Source: Candidatus Merdivivens pullistercoris (GTDB lineage Bacteria; Bacteroidota; Bacteroidia; Bacteroidales; UBA932). From it: a stretch of DNA of 64,000 nucleotides. The notes under the pieces were generated by a model. The model saw only the letters and a program-made list of their open reading frames with translations. It did no database searches and was not told the DNA's origin. Of the stretch, positions 10,198 through 55,995 are shown piece after piece. The DNA is taken from the NCBI GenBank assembly GCA_017694935.1, contig JADIME010000044.1, forward strand, positions 10,961 to 74,960. Direction: 5' to 3'. The position numbers and the translations under genes were made by a program. Position 1 is the stretch's first letter. Every line of letters begins with the position of its first letter.

Positions 10198-11238
10198 ATG
10201 AGGCAAAGGACACACATACATTCTTCGGTGCAGGACTGCCCGCCAAAAGGAAGGCGTTGGCCGTTGATTGCGGTTGCCATTTTGTGTTATGCGATGTTTC
10301 TGCGCATGTGTTATTGCCTGCTGAAAGAAGGGAGCGTTTTCCTGTACGACAACTGGAAAGATGAACTGTTTTACCATGCGGCAAACATTATCCCGATGGC
10401 GGTCATGGCCGCGAGTTGCTTTGCCATAGTCTTTTTCGTAACCGACAGAGGCATACTTGCCCGGAAATTCATGCTGAAATCATTTGTCGATCTCTTGTCC
10501 ACGGCCGCGCTTACCTTTATCGGATATTCCGTACTGGTGATGTTCTATAGGATATTCATGCCCATAAACGTGGATTTCGGCGGAATACTCGTGACATGGA
10601 TAGTCACTTTCCTCGTGGTGGAACTGTTCTATTATATGTACCGTTCCCGCCGTGAACTTAAAAAGGCCGAGTATGCCAAACTCCGTGCGGTCCAGTACCA
10701 GTTCAACGCTTTCCGTTCCAAGGTGAACCCGCATTTCCTCTTCAATTCGCTTAACATGCTGATGGAGATTATCGAGACGGACAAGCGGAAGGCAGTGGAG
10801 TTCACCCAGTCCCTTTCGGACATTTACCGTTACACCCTCGACATTTACGGGAAATCTTCGGTCAGCCTTTCAGACGAGATTTCTTTCCTGCGTTCGTACC
10901 TGCATGTGCTGAGCCTGAAATACAATGATTTTCTGAAAGTGAATATTTCGGAAAACACGTCCCTCAAAGGGAAAAGCATAGTGCCATTTACGATGCAGCT
11001 GCTTCTGGAAAACGTGACAAAACACAATGTCATATCGGACAGGCATCCGGTCTCGGTGGATATAAACATAAATGACGACTGCATAACCATGACGAACGGG
11101 ATAAAAAGGAAAGAAAGCCGTACCGACCTGTCGGGGCTCGGGCTGAAATATATTTATTCGCAATATGAGATAAAGGGCAAGTCATTCATGGTAAAGGATG
11201 ACGGAAAAATTTTCACGGCGATAGTGCCGTATTTATAA
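10198..11238 (+). CDS. Second LytS-type sensor histidine kinase, paralog of 8186-9208
   Basis: Same architecture and motifs ('KVNPHFLFNSLN', 'QLLLENVTKHN', 'GLGLKY'). Aligns end-to-end with the first kinase. The track start at 10186 is TTG; the first ATG is at 10198. Confidence 0.85.
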   Translation: MRQRTHIHSSVQDCPPKGRRWPLIAVAILCYAMFLRMCYCLLKEGSVFLYDNWKDELFYHAANIIPMAVMAASCFAIVFFVTDRGILARKFMLKSFVDLLSTAALTFIGYSVLVMFYRIFMPINVDFGGILVTWIVTFLVVELFYYMYRSRRELKKAEYAKLRAVQYQFNAFRSKVNPHFLFNSLNMLMEIIETDKRKAVEFTQSLSDIYRYTLDIYGKSSVSLSDEISFLRSYLHVLSLKYNDFLKVNISENTSLKGKSIVPFTMQLLLENVTKHNVISDRHPVSVDININDDCITMTNGIKRKESRTDLSGLGLKYIYSQYEIKGKSFMVKDDGKIFTAIVPYL

Positions 11239-15310: not shown

Positions 15311-15426
15311 GTGAAAAACAAAATTTGCTGGAGCAAGCCGACTTAACTCGTAGCTCTGTGATGTGCTGATTTACAAGGTCTTGCATAAATTCGACAATTT
15401 GCAGTTGCTCCGGCAGTTTTCATAAA
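15311..15426. repeat. Single MITE-like unit bounded by the inverted repeat TGCTGGAGCA / TGCTCC(g)GCA
   Basis: 'gtgaaaaacaaaatttgctggagcaagccgacttaac...gacaatttgcagttgctccggcagttttcataaa'. Same family as the units at 23325-23556 and 37264-37487. Confidence 0.75.
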
Positions 15427-15504
15427 TGGCTCCTGTCGTGGCCTGTAATACGAACCGGTCTGCGTGGCGACAACGTACCTGCAGGGCAGGCAGGGAAATC
15501 GGGG

Positions 15505-15527
15505 GGGGTAATTTTGCGGAGAATCAT
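15505..15527 (+). repeat. Solo copy of the arm of the 46240-46409 palindrome; contains TAATTTTG
   Basis: 'ggggtaattttgcggaGaatcat' matches 46389-46411 'ggggtaattttgcggaTaatcat' with one mismatch. Confidence 0.6.
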
Positions 15528-23105: not shown

Positions 23106-23324
23106 AGGCGTGTCTGAATGGCATGCCCTCTTTTTTATGTATGCTTCTTGTACTTCATGAGAAGCTGTTTAAAATTTTTTCTCAGAACATTTGAGGCAGG
23201 CTTTCGTGCAGGTTTTTGCCATTTTTTGAGGAGAATAGCAGCGCTATTTTACAATAAAAACGGCGGAAACATGCCGGAATGGTGTCACAAAGAACTTTTG
23301 AAAAAAATTAAACAGCTTCTAAAT

Positions 23325-23556
23325 CAAGGCTTATGTAAAACAGAATTTGCTGGAGCACCCGGACTTAATTCACGGTGTTGTAACTTGGTGATAATGTGTG
23401 GGTTGTAAAATATTGACAATTTTCAGTCGCTCCAACAGCTATGCAAAAACATGCCTGCTGGAGCAAGCCGACTTAACTTATATTGGTGTGACGTGTTGAT
23501 TTACAAGGTTTTGTGTAAATTAGACAATTTGCGGTTGCTCCAGGAATTTTCATAAA
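23325..23556. repeat. Dimer of MITE-like units, each bounded by TGCTGGAGCA / TGCTCCA(g/a)CA inverted repeats
   Basis: Unit 1 spans about 23333-23438 and unit 2 about 23455-23556, joined by a 16-nt loop (23439-23454). Collinear with 37264-37487. Confidence 0.8.
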
Positions 23557-23588
23557 TAGCATCTGCCAGTGCAATGTGGTATTCTTGA

Positions 23589-23636
23589 GGGGGGGAAGTG
23601 AATCGATTTGTCGTGAAATCGTAGCACTTTCCCCCG
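23589..23636. repeat. Conserved 45-nt GC-stem hairpin, copy A1
   Basis: 'gggggaagtg aatcgatttgtcgtgaaatcgtag cactttccccc'. One of five copies in the window. Confidence 0.8.
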
Positions 23637-23697
23637 AGGGAGGAATCGCGCTCTCGGCTCTACGGCCATTCTGTCTGCATCTCTCGCCCGTCCTTCC

Positions 23698-23742
23698 GGG
23701 GAAAGTGAATCAATTTGCCGCGAAATCGTAGCACTTTCCCCC
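23698..23742. repeat. Conserved 45-nt GC-stem hairpin, copy A2
   Basis: 'ggggaaagtg aatcaatttgccgcgaaatcgtag cactttcccc', followed by 'cggtacaag' as in copies B2 and C. Confidence 0.8.
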
Positions 23743-23867
23743 GGTACAAGCCCAGGGCTCCCGTCGTGTCCGTGAGCCCGGGGCCTCCCGGCCCATCCGG
23801 GCGAAACAAGCCCTCTGCCTCGCGAAACAAGCCGTTGCACTTGATCGTTGACTCTGCCCGAAACAAG

Positions 23868-23912
23868 CAATGCAAATTCATTTGCATTGCTCTCGGCTTC
23901 TTAGTATATTTG
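23868..23912 (+). promoter_or_regulatory. Palindrome + consensus promoter cassette driving secA
   Basis: Palindrome caatgcaaat-tc-atttgcattg (23868-23889). -33 TTTG at 23881-23884, a 20-nt spacer 'cattgctctcggcttcttag', and -7 TATATTTG at 23905-23912. The ATG is at 23950. Confidence 0.6.
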
Positions 23913-23949
23913 CAAATTATTTGGATTTTAATTGATATAAAGAGGATAT

Positions 23950-26900
23950 ATGTCTTTTGCTGATATTTTGAAAAAGTTGTTCGGATCAAAGTCCGAACGT
24001 GATTTGAAAGCCGTAAGGCCTATTCTGGACAAGGTGCTGGCGGCATACGAAAGGATAGACAGGCTCACGGTGGACGAGCTGAGGGAGGCAAGTGCCGCGT
24101 TGAAGGAGCGTGTGGCTGCCGCCATAGCCTCCGATGAGGCAAGGATTGCCCAGATAAAGGAAGAGATGGACAAGGATCTCCCTGTCAAGGAAAAGGAAAA
24201 ACTGGCTTCGGAAGCCGATACCTTGGAAAAGAACATAGACGATACCATAGAAAAGGTGTTGAACGAGATTCTTCCCGATGCCTTTGCCATCATGAAATCC
24301 ACTGCACGCCGTTTTGCCGAGAACAGCAAGATAAGGGTGAAGGCGTCCGATTTCGACCGTAAACTGAGTTCGCAGAAAGATTTCGTGTCGATAGACGGAG
24401 ACGAGGCCGTCTGGAAAAACTCATGGATGGCCGGAGGCAATACCATCGTATGGGACATGGTGCATTATGATGTCCAGCTCATCGGCGGTATCGCCCTTCA
24501 TCAGGGAAAGATAGCCGAGATGGCCACCGGTGAGGGAAAAACCCTTGTGGCGACCCTTCCAGTCTTTCTGAATGCATTGGCAGGCAAGGGTGTGCATGTG
24601 GTAACCGTCAATGATTACCTGTCAAAGCGTGACTCTGAATGGATGGGTCCTCTTTATATGTTCCACGGGCTTTCGGTTGATTGCATAGACAAGCACCAGC
24701 CCAATTCGGACACAAGGAAGGCCGCATACAATGCCGACATAACATTCGGTACCAACAATGAATTCGGTTTCGACTACCTGAGGGACAACATGGCCATATC
24801 CACCAAGGATCTTGTGCAGCGCAAGCACCACTATGCGATAGTCGACGAGGTGGACTCTGTGTTGATAGACGATGCCCGTACCCCGTTGATTATTTCCGGA
24901 CCGGTTCCTAAGGGCGACGACCAGCAGTTCGGGGAGTACAAGCCATACGTTGAAAAACTTTACAATGCCCAGAGGCTCCTTGCGATCGGATACCTCAACG
25001 AGGCCAAGAAACTCATAGGCGAAGGCAAGACGGACGAAGGCGCGGTCGCATTGCTCAGGGCGCACAAGGCGCTTCCTAAGATGAACGCCCTGATCAAATT
25101 CCTCAGCGAGCCCGGCATGAAACAACTGCTTCTGAGCGTTGAAGGCCGCTATATGCAGGACAACAACCGCAACATGCACATAATCACCGATCCTCTGTAT
25201 TTCGTGATAGACGAGAAGCAGAAGACGGTGGATCTGACCGACAAGGGCCATGACCTCCTGAGCGAGAGATTCGAAGACAATAAGTTTTTCGTGTTGCCGG
25301 ACGTCGGCGAGGAGATTGCGGAACTTGAAAAGGACGCGTCATTGGACGAGGCGGCAAAGCAGCAGAAAAAAGACGAGATACTTTCGGATTACGCCCTGAA
25401 ATCGGAACGCGTGCATACCGTCCACCAGCTCCTGAAGGCATACGCCATGTTCGAAAAGGACGTTGAATACGTCGTTATGGACAACAAGGTGAAAATCGTG
25501 GACGAGCAGACAGGACGTATCCTCGAGGGCCGCCGTTATTCCGACGGGCTGCACCAGGCAATAGAGGCCAAGGAAAACGTGAAAGTCGAGGCGGCCACGC
25601 AGACATTCGCGACAATTACCCTCCAGAACTATTTCAGGATGTACCACAAGCTGGCCGGAATGACCGGTACCGCGGAGACGGAAGCCGGAGAGTTCTGGTC
25701 GATATACAAGATGGATGTAATGGTCATACCGACTAACAGGCCGGTGATAAGGGTGGACCAGGACGATATTATCTACAAGACCCGCACGGCGAAGTACAAG
25801 GCCGTCATAGACGAAATCGTCAGCCTCACCCAACAGGGCAGGCCGGTTCTTGTAGGTACTGTATCCGTCGAGGTTTCCGAGCTTATAAGCAGGATGCTCC
25901 GCATGAGGGGCATCAAGCACCAGGTATTGAATGCCAAGCAGCATGCACGTGAGGCCGAGGTAGTCGCACATGCCGGAGAGGCGGGCACGGTAACCATCGC
26001 GACAAACATGGCCGGGCGTGGTACCGATATCAAGCTGACCGACGAGGTACGCAAGGCCGGCGGTCTGGCGATAATCGGTACGGAAAGGCATGACAGCCGC
26101 CGTGTGGACAGGCAGTTGAGAGGACGTGCCGGAAGACAGGGAGACCCGGGATCTTCAGTTTTCTATGTTTCCCTTGAAGACAACCTGATGCGTCTGTTCG
26201 GTGCCGAGCGAGTTTCCCGCATCGTGGACAGGCTGGGGCTCAAAGACGATGAGGCACTGCACTCTTCAGCCCTTTCAGGAATGATAGAGCGTGCGCAGAA
26301 GAGGGTGGAGGAGAACAACTTCGGTATCCGTAAACGTCTGCTGGAGTACGATGACGTGATGAACGCCCAGCGTAAGGCCATATACGGGCGCAGGCGCAAT
26401 GCCCTCAACGGTGAGAGGATAGAAATCGATTTGGCCAACATGATTCAGGACATGGCGGACTTCTTCATTGACAAGTATGGCGAATATGACTATGGCTCGT
26501 TCTCATACGAATTGATGAAGGTTCTTTCGATAGAGCCTCCTTTCGATGAGAAGACGTTCGAGGATTCAAAGAAAGAGGAACTGTCCGGAAAATTGGTAGA
26601 GGCCATAACCGAGGCATACGACCGTCGTATGGAAACCATGATGACCCAGACATATCCTGTCATCAAGAACGTTTACGAAACCCAGGGCGCAATATATGAA
26701 AACATAGCCATTCCTATAAGCGACGGCATGAAGGCCTTGACGATAGCCGTAAACCTTAGGAAATCATACGAGACCGGAGGGAAGGAGATAGTACGTTCTT
26801 TGGCCAAGACCATCATGCTTTATCAGATAGACGAGCACTGGAAGCAGCATCTCAGAAACATGGATGACCTGAAACAGTCGGTACAGAACGCCACATACGA

Positions 26901-27222
26901 GCAGAAAGACCCGTTATTGATATATAAAGTCGAAAGTTACGGGCTTTTCAAGGAAACAGTCCAGGACATCACTTCGGATGTGCTGTCATTCCTGCTCAGG
27001 GCTTTCGTCCCGTTGCGCCAGAATCCTTCCGTAAGGGAGAGCGTACAGCGCCGGACGGACATGAGCCAGATGCAGACCAGCAGGAACGACCTGCACACGA
27101 ACGGCGGAGAGCCTAAGAGCAATGCCCCTATACGCGTGGAGAAGAAAGTGGGCAGAAACGACCCTTGCCCTTGCGGCAGCGGAAAGAAATACAAGAACTG
27201 CTGCGGAAAGAATGCGCAATAG
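23950..27222 (+). CDS. secA: Preprotein translocase ATPase SecA
   Basis: 1090 aa. Walker A 'MATGEGKT', '[19 protein letters not shown]', and the C-terminal zinc motif '[14 protein letters not shown]'. Confidence 0.97.
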
Positions 27223-36550: not shown

Positions 36551-36948
36551 GGGGCTGTTTTGGTTTTGACAGCATTTGACATCGGAAAGTAAGCACGTCC
36601 GGCGTTGGAAGTTTGCCGGCAAACTCAACTTTCAAGCCTATAGTTGGCAACAATAACAATTATGCACTCGCTGCGTAGTCGAGCCTAAGGCTGACCGCTT
36701 AATCATCCGGACAAGGTCTGCGATGACGAGTATCCCGCCGCCCTTTTGGCCGGTTATGCGCGGCATACGGGGTATCATGGAAACCGGATGCGGGGACAGA
36801 CTCCTTTAAAGTCCCTTAAGTTCCAAAAGGATAAGGCTATGCCAACCTGTCCCCCGGCAGGTATGGCCCGACAATCAAAGAGGGAATAAACGTGTAGAAA
36901 GCTTTTGGGTGCGATGTTTGGACGGCGGTTCGAGTCCGCCCAGCTCCA
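36551..36948 (+). ncRNA. ssrA: tmRNA (SsrA), about 398 nt, 3' CCA not encoded
   Basis: The 5' end GGGGCUG pairs with the 3' CAGCUCC (G3.U), followed by discriminator A. The T-arm is 'ggcggttcgagtccgcc'. The tag reading frame at 36647-36679, 'ggc aac aat aac aat tat gca ctc gct gcg tag', encodes GNNNNYALAA*. Confidence 0.95.
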
Positions 36949-36955
36949 CAAATGA

Positions 36956-37007: not shown

Positions 37008-37058
37008 CTGGGCTCCGTTCTGGTACCTCCGTGATGCATTACGGGATCGTCGTACTGC

Positions 37059-37154
37059 CGTCATGATGCTGCCATACTGTCGTCATGGTACCGCCATGGC
37101 CGTCATGCAGAAGCTGTCGCCGTCATGGTGTCGCCATGCTGCTGCCATAGTACC
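37059..37154. repeat. Iteron-like direct repeats (4 units of 20-22 bp, core CGTCATG..GCCAT)
   Basis: CGTCATG occurs at 37059, 37081, 37101 and 37121. GCCAT occurs at 37071, 37093, 37133 and 37144. The array is followed by an AT-rich tract (37155-37215) containing the palindrome tgctgt-ctattaataaata-acagca. Confidence 0.6.
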
Positions 37155-37263
37155 ACTAAAAATTTTCACAATTGCATTAACTTGCTGTCTATTAATAAAT
37201 AACAGCATGTTATAATTAAGCCGGATGTGCCTCGGGGGTGCAGTGCAATCCGCAGAACAGCCT

Positions 37264-37487
37264 GTGAAAAACAGAATTTGCTGGAGCACCCGGATTTAAT
37301 TTGTTGTGATGTAACGTGATGATAATGTGTGAGTTGTGAAATATTGGCAATTTTCAGTTGCTCCAGCAGGTGTGTTTTTGCATGTCTGCTGGAGCATATC
37401 GACTTAACTTGCACCGATGCGATGTATTGATTTACAGGGTTTTGTGCAAATTTAACAATTTACGGCTGCTCCAGCAGTTTTCATAAA
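37264..37487. repeat. Dimer of MITE-like units (TGCTGGAGCA / TGCTCCAGCA), second locus
   Basis: Unit 1 spans about 37264-37369 and unit 2 about 37386-37487, separated by a loop at 37370-37385. Collinear with 23325-23556. Confidence 0.8.
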
Positions 37488-37565
37488 CAATTCCAGCTCG
37501 GCAACATGAAACACGAAACTGTGTTCTCGGTCATACTGGTCCGGCAGGCGTACATCTGTCTTCTT

Positions 37566-37610
37566 GGGGGAAAGTGAACTGATTTGTCGCGAAACCGTAG
37601 CACTTTTCCC
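37566..37610. repeat. Conserved 45-nt GC-stem hairpin, copy B1
   Basis: 'gggggaaagtg aactgatttgtcgcgaaaccgtag cacttttccc'. Confidence 0.8.
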
Positions 37611-37671
37611 GTGGTATAATCGCGCTCTCGGCTCTACGGCCATTCTGCCGGCATCCCTCTCCCGTTCTTCC

Positions 37672-37715
37672 GGGGAAAGTGAATCGATTTGCCGCGAAAC
37701 CGTAGCACTTTCCCC
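37672..37715. repeat. Conserved 45-nt GC-stem hairpin, copy B2
   Basis: 'ggggaaagtg aatcgatttgccgcgaaaccgtag cactttcccc', followed by 'cggtacaaac'. Confidence 0.8.
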
Positions 37716-37909
37716 CGGTACAAACCGGACACCCGTCCTCTTTTTGCGAGGCATGCCATGCCACTCTCGGCTTCTGCGATATTCGGCTTCGCCGGAAATA
37801 CGGTTCACGCCTCGGCAACGCAAGCCGTCAGGCTTGCATAGCATGTTTCGCCCGTCGTATTCGTGAGCCCGAGGTCTCCCGTCTCTTCCAGACGAAACAT
37901 GTCAATTGT

Positions 37910-37954
37910 CAATGCAAATGTATTTGCATTGCTCTCGGCTTCTGCGTATATTTG
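37910..37954 (+). promoter_or_regulatory. Palindrome + consensus promoter cassette (distal, upstream of ftsY)
   Basis: Palindrome caatgcaaat-gt-atttgcattg (37910-37931). -33 TTTG at 37923-37926, the 20-nt spacer 'cattgctctcggcttctgcg', and -7 TATATTTG at 37947-37954. Confidence 0.55.
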
Positions 37955-37985
37955 CCCTGTCGGGCAGAAATACTGTTGCGCCTCG

Positions 37986-38040
37986 GAAAAGGAAATTGAA
38001 CAAGTTCATTTCCTTTTCTCTCGGCTTCTGCGTATATTTG
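37986..38040 (+). promoter_or_regulatory. Second hairpin + promoter cassette (proximal) driving ftsY
   Basis: Palindrome 'gaaaaggaaattgaac aa gttcatttccttttc', then 'tctcggcttctgcg' and -7 TATATTTG at 38033-38040. The ATG is at 38066. Confidence 0.55.
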
Positions 38041-38065
38041 CAAATTGTTGTATAATTGTTGTATT

Positions 38066-39046
38066 ATGGGTATTTTCGATAAGGGGTTGAAGAAGACCAA
38101 AGAAGGCTTTTTCTCCAGATTGTCAAAAGCTATCCTCGGCAAATCGGTGATAGACGATGATGTGCTTGACGGGATTGAGGAGGCTTTGATTGCTTCCGAC
38201 ATGGGAGTGGACACGACTATGAAAGTCATAGACAGGTTGGAGGAGCGGGTACAGCGTGACAAGTATATGAACCTGAAAGAGCTCGGAGATCTTGTCAAGG
38301 AAGAGGTGATGGCTCTGTTGAATGTTTCGGATGGCGGTAAAGCAGGACATTCCGATGGTGGCAAGGCCGGTTTTTCCGGCAATGGAGCGGCAGAACCGTT
38401 CGACTTCTCGAAGAAACCGTATGTCATCATGGTCGTCGGAGTGAACGGGGTAGGCAAGACCACGACGATAGGCAAGATCGCTTCCATGCTCAGGGCACAG
38501 GGGAAGAAAGTGGTCCTTGGAGCGGCGGATACTTTCAGGGCGGCGGCTGTCGATCAGCTGACAATCTGGGCGGAACGTTCCGGAGCGGACATAGTCAAGC
38601 AAGGCATGGGGGCGGATCCGGCATCCGTCGCTTACGATACAGTCAGTTCGGCTGTAGCCAAAGGAGCCGATGTGGTTCTGATAGATACTGCCGGAAGGCT
38701 TCACAATAAGGTCAATCTCATGAACGAGCTTACCAAGATCCGCAACGTGATGCGGAAAGTGGTGCCGGATGCTCCTCACGAGGTGCTGCTTGTTCTGGAC
38801 GGCTCTACCGGGCAGAACGCGTACATGCAGGCTCAGGAATTTGCAAAAGCCACGGATATTACCGCCTTGGCTGTCACAAAATTGGACGGAACGGCGAAAG
38901 GCGGTGTGGTAATAGGAATCGTGGACCGTTTCAAGGTGCCTGTGAAATTCGTCGGCATCGGCGAAGGCGTGGATGATTTGAAGATTTTTGACAAACGCGA
39001 GTTTATCGATTCGATATTTTCGATCGATGATATAAATAACAATTAA
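38066..39046 (+). CDS. ftsY: Signal recognition particle receptor FtsY
   Basis: 'MGIFDKGLKKTKEGFFSRL', the G-domain motifs 'GVNGVGKTTTIGK', 'DTAGR' and 'TKLDGTAKGG'. The track ORF begins 21 nt upstream. Confidence 0.95.
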   Translation: MGIFDKGLKKTKEGFFSRLSKAILGKSVIDDDVLDGIEEALIASDMGVDTTMKVIDRLEERVQRDKYMNLKELGDLVKEEVMALLNVSDGGKAGHSDGGKAGFSGNGAAEPFDFSKKPYVIMVVGVNGVGKTTTIGKIASMLRAQGKKVVLGAADTFRAAAVDQLTIWAERSGADIVKQGMGADPASVAYDTVSSAVAKGADVVLIDTAGRLHNKVNLMNELTKIRNVMRKVVPDAPHEVLLVLDGSTGQNAYMQAQEFAKATDITALAVTKLDGTAKGGVVIGIVDRFKVPVKFVGIGEGVDDLKIFDKREFIDSIFSIDDINNN

Positions 39047-46239: not shown

Positions 46240-46409
46240 GATTATCCGCAAAATTACCCTTATGAAGATGAAAGCAGTAATAGCCACGGACAGTACATCC
46301 CTCCTACCGCTTCGCGGCAGGCACCACCCGTTCACGAGGCCACGGGCGGCCACGCTGTCCGTGGCTATTACTGCATACACAATCATTTGGGGTAATTTTG
46401 CGGATAATC
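46240..46409. repeat. 170-bp nested palindrome (two 20-bp perfect inverted-repeat pairs)
   Basis: The outer arms are gattatccgcaaaattaccc (46240-46259) and gggtaattttgcggataatc (46390-46409). The inner arms are gcagtaatagccacggacag (46274-46293) and ctgtccgtggctattactgc (46355-46374). Confidence 0.9.
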
Positions 46410-55136: not shown

Positions 55137-55165
55137 TTTCAAAGGACGGGTGTTTTCTGTGTTGA

Positions 55166-55210
55166 GGGGGAAAGTGAACAGGTTTGCCGTGAAACCGTAG
55201 CACTTTCCCC
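55166..55210. repeat. Conserved 45-nt GC-stem hairpin, copy C
   Basis: 'gggggaaagtg aacaggtttgccgtgaaaccgtag cactttcccc', followed by 'ggtacaagtc' and 'cctcccgtctc' as at the secA/ftsY loci. Confidence 0.8.
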
Positions 55211-55250
55211 GGTACAAGTCCGATGCCTCCCGTCTCCTGCTGAAGATAGT

Positions 55251-55294
55251 CATGAAAAAATATTTGTCATGCACCCGGCTTTTGAGTATCTTTG
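55251..55294 (+). promoter_or_regulatory. Palindrome + promoter cassette upstream of ridA
   Basis: Palindrome 'catgaaaaaatatttgtcatg'. -33 TTTG at 55263-55266, a 20-nt spacer '..cacccggcttttgag', and -7 TATCTTTG at 55287-55294. Confidence 0.5.
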
Positions 55295-55376
55295 CCAGTC
55301 ATCCGGCGTATGTGAAGCGGATGCTAGTATATGAAAGCGGATGAGACAAGAGTTTATGTAATAAAAAGCAGATACA

Positions 55377-55751
55377 ATGAAAAAAGTAATTTCTTCACCA
55401 AAGGCTCCGGCAGCAGTGGGGCCTTATTCGCAGGCAATCGAGATTAACGGCATGTTGTTTGTTTCCGGCCAGCTTCCTACCAATCCGGCTACCGGCAAGG
55501 CTCCTGAAACCATAGAGGAGCAGACAAGGCAGTCGCTTGCAAATGCGGCCGCAATACTTGAGGAAGCAGGGTACAGTTTTGCCGATGTCGTAAAAACTAC
55601 AGTGCTCCTGACTGACATAAAGGACTTTGCAGCAATGAATGCCGTATATGCCGAGCATTTTTCCGGTGCATATCCTGCAAGAGTATGCTATCAGGTTGCA
55701 GCTCTACCGATGGGGGCGAAGGTTGAAATCGATATGATTGCAGGAAAGTAA
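55377..55751 (+). CDS. ridA: RidA family reactive-intermediate (enamine/imine) deaminase
   Basis: 124 aa. 'PKAPAAVGPYSQAI', 'FVSGQLP', 'ARVCYQVAALPMGAKVEI'. Confidence 0.9.
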   Translation: MKKVISSPKAPAAVGPYSQAIEINGMLFVSGQLPTNPATGKAPETIEEQTRQSLANAAAILEEAGYSFADVVKTTVLLTDIKDFAAMNAVYAEHFSGAYPARVCYQVAALPMGAKVEIDMIAGK

Positions 55752-55852: not shown

Positions 55853-55900
55853 ATCCGCAAATCCGCAAATCCGTAAATCCGTAAATCCGTAAATCCGCAT
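55853..55900. repeat. 8-bp tandem repeat ATCCG(C/T)AA x6
   Basis: 'atccg' starts at 55853, 55861, 55869, 55877, 55885 and 55893. The array is followed by two 'caaattgcatc' direct repeats. Confidence 0.9.
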
Positions 55901-55928
55901 CGGCAAATTGCATCATCAAATTGCATCC

Positions 55929-55975
55929 GCAAATGCAAAAGCATTTGCATTACTTTCGGCTTCTGAGTATCTTTG
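55929..55975 (+). promoter_or_regulatory. Palindrome + promoter cassette driving the TPR-AraC regulator
   Basis: Palindrome gcaaatgc-aaaa-gcatttgc (55929-55948). -33 TTTG at 55944-55947, the 20-nt spacer 'cattactttcggcttctgag', and -7 TATCTTTG at 55968-55975. The ATG is at 55996. Confidence 0.55.
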
Positions 55976-55995
55976 CGAGGCTATATATAAGGTGT

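Follow-up and report, generated by a model that had tools for sequence, protein, structure and literature searches.

The 64-kb stretch of Candidatus Merdivivens pullistercoris DNA analysed here (contig JADIME010000044.1, hereafter the window) comes from an uncultured member of the Bacteroidales that NCBI places in Muribaculaceae incertae sedis. It encodes SecA, the motor of the Sec pathway, and FtsY, the receptor of the signal recognition particle (SRP), and the Pfam domains agree with both identities. In the protein collection an FtsY identical to this one bears the label Candidatus Merdivivens pullistercoris. Long gaps precede the two genes, about 0.9 kb between a small ferredoxin gene and secA, and 1.1 kb between ssrA (transfer-messenger RNA, tmRNA; Rfam, 36551-36951) and ftsY. 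Both gaps contain the same composite element, for which a first-pass annotation of the window had described six ordered modules; all six were recovered by alignment and with a repeat finder, at or near the places it had given. The composite probably belongs to a lineage-specific, interspersed family of mosaic DNA repeats that gives a promoter to the gene behind it, and is not a switch that couples Sec and SRP export.

A full copy spans 0.6-1.1 kb and has the order A1-A2, C, (B-Lk)n-B, D(P'), P1(-P2), in which a dimer of ~108-nt A units is followed by a junction module (C), a tandem array of hairpins (B) and linkers (Lk), a looser segment (D), and one or two modules made of a palindrome and a promoter (P). 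Its left end carries a -7-like motif, AGAATTTGC, in direct orientation. The secA and ftsY copies are 81% identical over 228 nt in the dimer (23329-23556 vs 37260-37487), 93% over the 109 nt of the linker and second hairpin (23644-23752 vs 37618-37726), and 91% over the 46 nt of the P module (23868-23913 vs 37910-37955), while the looser segment at 23760-23808 matches the D module of ftsY at 82% over 49 nt. Hairpin B is present twice at each locus. The junction C exists in two forms that define two subfamilies, a long one at the ftsY, AraC, sufS, and arginine-deiminase-family loci and a short one at the secA, pepC, and TPR loci. As identical junctions are found at unlinked loci, long segments appear to have been copied between loci and not built independently. 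The features are collected in Table 1.

Table 1. Modules of the composite, their relatives and associated genes. Positions refer to the window unless a locus is named.
Feature	Position	Strand	Remarks
secA	23950..27222	+	Pfam SecA_DEAD, SecA_PP_bind, SecA_SW, SEC-C
A1, secA copy	23339..23446	+	~108 nt, inverted ends TGCTGGAGCA and CGCTCCAACA; nhmmer E=9e-33; 16-unit alignment
A2, secA copy	23447..23573	+	nhmmer E=7e-36
Hairpin B, first copy, secA	23589..23643	+	covariance model R1 71 bits; fold -28.1 kcal/mol
Linker Lk, secA	23644..23697	+	with B makes a ~106-nt tandem unit
Hairpin B, second copy, secA	23696..23750	+	R1 77.7 bits; followed by GGTACAA
D segment, shortened, secA	23751..23867	+	remnant of the longer D at ftsY and other loci
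P module, secA	23868..23913	+	palindrome and promoter
ftsY	38066..39046	+	Pfam SRP54_N, SRP54
A1, ftsY copy	37269..37379	+	nhmmer E=4e-31
A2, ftsY copy	37380..37504	+	nhmmer E=1e-34
Junction module C, long form, ftsY	37488..37566	+	89-92% identity to L106, L107, L108, L110
B-Lk-B array, ftsY	37565..37724	+	hairpins at 37565-37619 and 37670-37724
D module, ftsY	37723..37905	+	holds putative decayed promoter unit P' CTCGGCTTCTGCGATATTCG at 37766-37785
P1, ftsY	37910..37955	+	palindrome and promoter
P2, ftsY	37996..38041	+	86-nt tandem copy, different palindrome
-33 palindromes	23866-23891, 37910-37931, 37999-38018, 55253-55273, 55934-55953		P modules
Solo A2-type unit	15316..15443	+	before DUF4493 lipoprotein operon; nhmmer E=3e-36; 83% to secA A2
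Short form, B and P	55165..55295	+	B 55165-55218, P 55250-55295; before RidA-family gene 55377-55751
Solo P module	55931..55976	+	before AraC/TPR regulator gene
L103			full composite; Peptidase_C1_2 (pepC-like) gene downstream
L104, L105			full composite; TPR protein downstream
L106			one A unit only; AraC/TPR regulator downstream
L107, L108, L109			3 vs 2 hairpins, strains ~97-98% identical; sufS-sufE operon downstream
L107, second site			short B-D-P form; gcvH downstream
L110			full composite; arginine-deiminase-family gene and ABC transporter downstream
161-nt MITE-like copies	L107 5249-5410, 11613-11725; L108 11714-11825
170-nt MITE-like copies	L103 3542-3719, L110 11894-12046; remnant at window 15507-15527

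The composite is not confined to the two export genes. Partial copies lie elsewhere in the window, and further loci were sought with a spurious minus-strand open reading frame (ORF) that spans B-Lk-B; the contigs of six protein matches were fetched. The contigs reached through such matches (L103-L110) were assigned to the same species on five or six repeat families that they have in common with the window at 80-94% identity and that are found in none of the relatives. Profile searches and the sequences themselves show the modules in the same order and orientation at five loci beyond secA and ftsY. All seven full copies (7/7) lie between co-directional genes, with P nearest the downstream start codon, and the P region of secA is 92% identical to another locus over 63 nt. 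The family probably numbers tens of copies or more, and within a family of this kind the co-occurrence at secA and ftsY is most simply a coincidence. The proposal that a promoter-carrying repeat had landed twice in front of export genes holds as regards the promoter-carrying repeat, but not as regards "twice", since the family has many copies and, among the loci found, no export bias.

On the two strands of the window together, the pattern TGCTGGAGCA-N70-100-GCTCC, which describes the A unit, has seven matches, where 0.00 are expected. Pattern search and alignment agree that a single A unit has inverted ends. Two units bounded by inverted 10-mers had been described in each gap; the units are there, but at secA their 10-mers (CGCTCCAACA, TGCTCCAGGA) match imperfectly. 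Folded as RNA in either orientation, A units form only a terminal stem, with a single compensated pair among 16 copies.

The phylogenetic range of the repeat is narrow. The nearest SecA from another species is 88% identical, and contigs of that sister species share 23 kb of synteny with the window, with a DNA identity of about 78%. The modules are not conserved upstream of the orthologous genes, as secA and ftsY of the sister species lack A, B, Lk, and P. Upstream of secA there are a small ferredoxin gene, then a terminator and an ordinary promoter, and the gap that separates ftsY from the DUF4295 gene measures 153 bp and contains no ssrA. At the loci of nine relatives (the sister species and eight more) this gap is 95-215 bp, likewise without ssrA. 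A covariance model of the hairpin that matches 20 forward-strand sites in 166 kb from the species found none in 1.41 Mb from relatives. The exact hairpin pattern was not found in 185,579 representative genomes, and a relaxed pattern gave 11 matches in the JGI metagenomes, all of them chance matches in which the stem is missing. Nor did nhmmer detect any module at thrS-anchored loci of representative genomes, where the best ThrRS among the matches listed was 82% identical.

The position of ssrA between the DUF4295 gene and ftsY is peculiar to this species. As ssrA is missing from the corresponding gap in the nine relatives, it was either relocated or DNA was inserted at this place together with the repeats. 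A degenerate repeat of ~22 nt, rich in GCCGTCATG, follows ssrA at about 37040-37150.

Unit number varies between strains. Ten metagenome contigs that encode an FtsY identical to that of the window were compared. A1-A2 is unchanged in all ten, the B+Lk unit is present in 1, 2, 3, 4, or 5 copies (the window has two hairpins), and P occurs once or twice, with one P match only in L005 and L010. One of the arrays spans a scaffolding gap, and some counts may reflect assembly, though the variation recurs across numerous independent assemblies. At the ridA site strain L118 has B-Lk-B-P where the window has one B and P, and the flanks are 97-99% identical. At the parE-DUF4493 site a conspecific strain carries a different, divergent composite. 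When strains were compared for filled and empty sites, what varied was the number of units, together with one site that has different composites in two strains; a precise empty site for the whole composite was not found in the strains compared. The distribution, anatomy, variability, and phylogenetic restriction of the family are all matters of direct observation. One apparent empty site was dropped, since L106 is not the window locus at 55.9-64 kb; the two have no coding homology and are paralogous arrangements.

Some of these sites have features of their own. The segment 8174-15532 of the window, which ends in the solo A unit, is a 7.4-kb strain-variable region with genes for two histidine kinases, one LytTR response regulator, and two Mfa-like fimbrillins (tandem paralogues). 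Strain L123 has 581 nt in its place, with a divergent composite in which two A units, one of them inverted, accompany two divergent hairpins. A tandem octamer, ATCCGCAA, in about six copies that merge into a 13-nt repeat (55853-55934), lies directly before the P module of the AraC/TPR regulator gene. The 124-aa RidA-family protein encoded behind the short form is identical in other species (L115-L122), at ~84% DNA identity for the gene and ~74% for its flanks, and is listed in 747 blocks of the protein collection, which is an unusually strong conservation.

A different kind of variation affects the 16 nt that separate the right arm of A1 from the left arm of A2 (~23439-23454; 37370-37385), which are in opposite orientations at secA and ftsY. 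One form is found in the secA, L107 sufS, and arginine-deiminase-family copies, and the other in the ftsY, pepC, TPR, and L108/L109 sufS copies, so that conspecific strains differ at the sufS locus (L107 ~10548-10563 vs L108 ~10649-10664). These differences are small hairpin-loop inversions. Such inversions, together with the inverted 10-mers that flank segments of ~85 nt, might point to an invertible, phase-variable promoter of a type that is common in Bacteroidales, for which the arms of the A units serve as recombinase sites. This is very improbable. P is located beyond the inverted arms and points the same way in every copy and strain, no inverted A body was seen at any one locus across the ten strains, and the Pfam domains recorded for genes of the window and the fetched loci include no recombinase. 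What flips is a 16-nt loop without a promoter motif, and the composite was therefore not placed in the invertible promoter class of the Bacteroidales.

The pattern of hairpin B occurs five times in the window against 0.00 expected. Its predicted folding energies lie between -15 and -28 kcal/mol, and z-scores go as low as -5. The stem contains runs of G and C of variable length, and 16 of 24 copies leave the central pair of the inner stem, 22-36, unpaired. Covariation among 24 distinct copies scored 0.090, equal to that of shuffled alignments (0.089). At the gathering threshold Rfam recognizes only the tmRNA and one tRNA in the whole window; in E-value mode the best matches in the two gaps reach ~21-24 bits, where the thresholds are 60-100, and are attributed to chance. 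A structured RNA family or small RNA was rejected on this lack of a gathering match and on covariation no better than the control. All 20 strong hairpin matches (at least 44 bits) read in the direction of the downstream gene; the 18 matches on the opposite strand reach at most 34 bits and are weak palindrome echoes at the same sites.

The non-coding call made for the element is borne out, as the tandem periods of 105 and 107 nt shift the frames of successive units and the only matching "proteins" are spurious ORFs. On the repeat (37452-37844 on the minus strand of the window, and equivalents) gene-finding programs predict ORFs of 80-205 aa, and at least 43 clusters of such "proteins" are found in a public protein collection; they are annotation artefacts, though handy for finding copies. 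Among other candidates, a CRISPR array was discarded, since the 54-nt "spacer" (the linker) is itself 90-100% conserved between units and loci and there are no cas genes. An integron attC site was dropped in the absence of cassettes.

These results bear on the suggestion that the composite is a dedicated cis-regulatory or small-RNA module which co-regulates the Sec motor and the SRP receptor. Although secA and ftsY both have full copies with the same module order, and although the hairpins fold stably, such a coupling is highly unlikely and fails the tests that the first-pass annotation itself had set for it. Full copies also precede five unrelated genes or operons (pepC-like, TPR, AraC/TPR, sufS, and arginine-deiminase-family/ABC), short forms precede ridA and gcvH, and copy number varies between strains. 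Upstream of the corresponding syntenic genes, the sister species and other relatives have none of the modules, and the hairpin has neither covariation nor an Rfam match. Moreover, the modules are located upstream of the predicted promoter and would thus be outside the mRNA made from P.

The P module matches TTTG-N20-TAnnTTTG, the consensus of the sigma-ABfr promoter (PMC7366714). The pattern TTTG-N18-22-TAnnTTTG was used for the searches, and a sigma-70 scanner was left aside because promoters of Bacteroidota differ. It finds seven sites in the 64 kb, four of which are P modules, while an extended promoter pattern has five matches in the window against 0.01 expected. As the first-pass annotation had it, a palindrome is fused to a consensus promoter at both genes. 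The distance from the end of the promoter to the ATG is 36 nt at secA and 24 nt at ftsY, and the ftsY locus has the module twice. At secA the palindrome CAATGCAAAT-TC-ATTTGCATTG overlaps the -33 TTTG (23881-23884), which is followed by the spacer CTCTCGGCTTCT and the -7 box TATATTTG (23905-23912). The copies cease to be alike exactly where the -7 box has its 3' end, with the C that follows TTTG (23913 at secA). Past the box, the 5' untranslated regions of secA and ftsY resemble those of the sister species by eye, and everything upstream is repeat. Judged from this comparison the repeat appears to end at, or to fuse with, the native -7 box and to supply all that lies upstream of it. In 170 kb of the species there are 25 P-type matches; 15 could be mapped to called or annotated genes, and 15/15 face a nearby start codon, at about 7-180 nt, mostly 20-80 nt, in the 14 cases measured.

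The D module of ftsY aligns locally with the promoter unit at a score of 48, where shuffled sequences give 12.7 +/- 2.2 and none of 2000 reaches 48; copies of D are found at five other loci. By this alignment D is a putative decayed P unit. A similar origin for the linker was not accepted, as it has only the 10-nt core GCTCTCGGCT in common with P and 19 of 2000 shuffles equal its score, which is suggestive only.

In the P modules of the window and of L103-L110 the -33 element is always the right arm of a palindrome of 9-12 nt. The arms vary by class (CAATGCAAAT, CAGAACAAAT, GGAAAT.GAA) yet remain complementary, for which structure or templated repair, the sole accounts offered here, may be responsible. 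On a rival view the repeats would serve some global regulator or nucleoid protein as a platform for binding, and would have assembled a broad housekeeping regulon as they spread. Candidate sites could lie in the palindrome over -33, in the A-unit arms with their near-palindromic TGCTnnAGCA, and in the 3' half of B, which is invariant. The strict orientation towards the gene would fit such a platform, and so would the conservation of spacer and palindrome well past the -33 and -7 hexamers and that of the 3' half of B (GAAACCGTAGCACTTTCCCC), which far exceeds that of the 5' half. Known repeats such as bacterial interspersed mosaic elements (BIMEs) and Correia elements also contain sites for integration host factor (PMC3184786). 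However, arms that vary but remain complementary fit a structure or a copying mechanism better than a single operator, and strains differ freely in how many of the supposed sites they have. A candidate regulator was not identified, and the proposal, drawn from sequence, is considered doubtful. Equally doubtful is a related view in which numerous housekeeping operons of the lineage, essential ones such as secA, ftsY, and sufS among them, have had their native promoter regions exchanged for a portable cassette of ~1 kb. In that case the conserved A units, the invariant half of B, and the -33 palindrome would be functional sites, used by a regulator or by a nucleic-acid structure, and the number of hairpins and promoters would make a strain-tunable regulon of what is then not merely a selfish repeat.

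If the composite is an interspersed repeat that delivers a promoter, its spread may be pictured as follows. The composite would be copied as a unit, because the two subfamilies have identical junctions, contrary to what independent assembly at each site would give. It would insert into promoter-proximal positions, where the terminal P would become the promoter of the downstream gene and replace or overlay the native -33 region. Unequal recombination or slippage at the tandem units would then lengthen and shorten the arrays, and the promoter units farther upstream would decay. The candidate routes for the spread are transposition in trans and recombination for which the -7 box and other repeats serve as anchors.

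A composite that is immobile as a unit is also conceivable, the arrays having arisen by local tandem duplication of promoter units and been homogenised by gene conversion. Tandem growth and shrinkage are seen directly, D appears to be a decayed P unit, terminal inverted repeats and target duplications are lacking, and the loop inversion between paralogues and strains speaks of active recombination within the repeats. On the other hand, A1-A2, C, B, and Lk have identical junctions at unlinked loci, which requires long segments to have been copied at least once, and the relatives have no precursor arrays. This explanation is considered rather unlikely.

Several points count against the reading as a promoter-delivering repeat family. 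L103-L110 have no unique sequence that overlaps the window, and it is by common repeats that they are assigned to the species. The copies counted, and the downstream genes tallied, are those of the window and the fetched contigs. NCBI holds a metagenome-assembled genome (MAG) with an identical FtsY, yet the scan of representative genomes did not find the hairpin; either this MAG is not the representative or its repeat regions are unassembled. For the composite as a whole a clean pair of empty and filled sites was not found, nor were a target-site duplication or terminal inverted repeats, so that its mobility is inferred. The conserved spacer CTCTCGGCTTCT and the complementary arms of the -33 palindrome are beyond the reach of this explanation, and their conservation could reflect a protein-binding or structural function. 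P, finally, is taken to be the promoter of the downstream gene from its match to the consensus only.

The first-pass annotation could not match the element to any described one. This is correct at the level of sequence, where Rfam has nothing similar, but the kind of element is well described. Pneumococcal BOX elements, reported by Martin et al. in 1992, are said to have the build boxA-boxB(n)-boxC with a variable internal module. They are listed as MITE-like (MITE, miniature inverted-repeat transposable element), with a length of 67-637 bp (PMC3184786). Like BOX, the composite has ordered modules in intergenic regions, a variable internal copy number, and many dispersed copies in one lineage, and BOX can affect the expression of neighbouring genes. 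BOX belongs to another phylum, however, and no sequence relationship was seen or expected. It also lacks a defining terminal promoter and is found in both orientations, while the composite always has a terminal promoter that faces the gene and a 108-nt dimer with inverted ends.

BrickBuilt of Porphyromonas gingivalis is a MITE with an internal minisatellite, present in ~19 copies per genome (PMC4596501), about the same order as the number indicated for the composite. It shares with the composite a host from the Bacteroidales, restriction to one species, an intergenic location, and a leader and tail around a variable tandem repeat, and it has promoter-active segments. Compared by description, BrickBuilt differs in its 23-nt repeats without spacers and its small inverted-repeat ends; the composite has a ~106-nt tandem unit, no terminal inverted repeats, and a unidirectional terminal promoter.

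Putative mobile promoters are defined as sequences at least 80% identical over at least 50 nt before non-homologous genes of one genome (Matus-Garcia, Nijveen, van Passel 2012; PMC3575422). The secA and ftsY copies exceed these values with 93% over 109 nt and 81% over 228 nt, although the best segment is only partly inside the strict window of -150 to -50. In mobile promoters and in Correia elements, as in the composite, a repeat gives promoter elements to the adjacent gene. Mobile promoters are however an operational class without a defined anatomy, and the composite is much longer and multi-modular. Correia elements, whose promoters face outward, are true MITEs of 100-160 bp that have TA duplications and occur in either orientation.

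The likeness to the BIMEs of Escherichia coli is looser, and consists in an intergenic mosaic of GC-rich imperfect palindromes and conserved linkers with variable unit number and an association with recombination. The repetitive extragenic palindromes (REPs) in BIMEs alternate in orientation. They are mostly located at the 3' ends of genes and are tied to REP-associated tyrosine transposases (RAYTs), whereas the hairpins described here are all direct repeats upstream of genes. The REP/BIME class was rejected, since all of the strong hairpins have the same direction and none alternate. The composite as a whole does not qualify formally as a MITE either, as its ends, TGTGAAAAACAGAATTTGC on the left and GTATATTTGC on the right, share only A(A/T)ATTTGC, which is direct and not inverted. 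No target-site duplication was seen by eye in the flanks of eight composite copies.

Two MITE-like elements do occur in the window. One of 161 nt, with 20-nt terminal inverted repeats (AGAAGCTGTTTAAAATTTTT), lies at 23160-23320, a few bases upstream of the secA composite, to which it is unrelated. A site filled with it in L107 is precisely empty in L108 and L109, with a duplication of TAA (or TA), which means that this element was recently mobile. The second (46240-46409), 170 nt long, is bounded by perfect 20-nt terminal inverted repeats (GATTATCCGCAAAATTACCC); copies are scattered through the species, and relatives have none.

The composite thus represents a previously undescribed repeat family, of a kind already known, in an uncultured gut member of the Bacteroidales. 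Recognizing it removes a tempting but wrong inference, that of a hidden regulatory link between Sec and SRP. The family is a cause of breaks in assemblies. The variation in unit number at the apparent promoters of essential genes is a possible source of differences in expression between strains. If the repeat does deliver promoters, it would be a clear case of natural promoter propagation in the Bacteroidota, whose promoters differ from the sigma-70 type.

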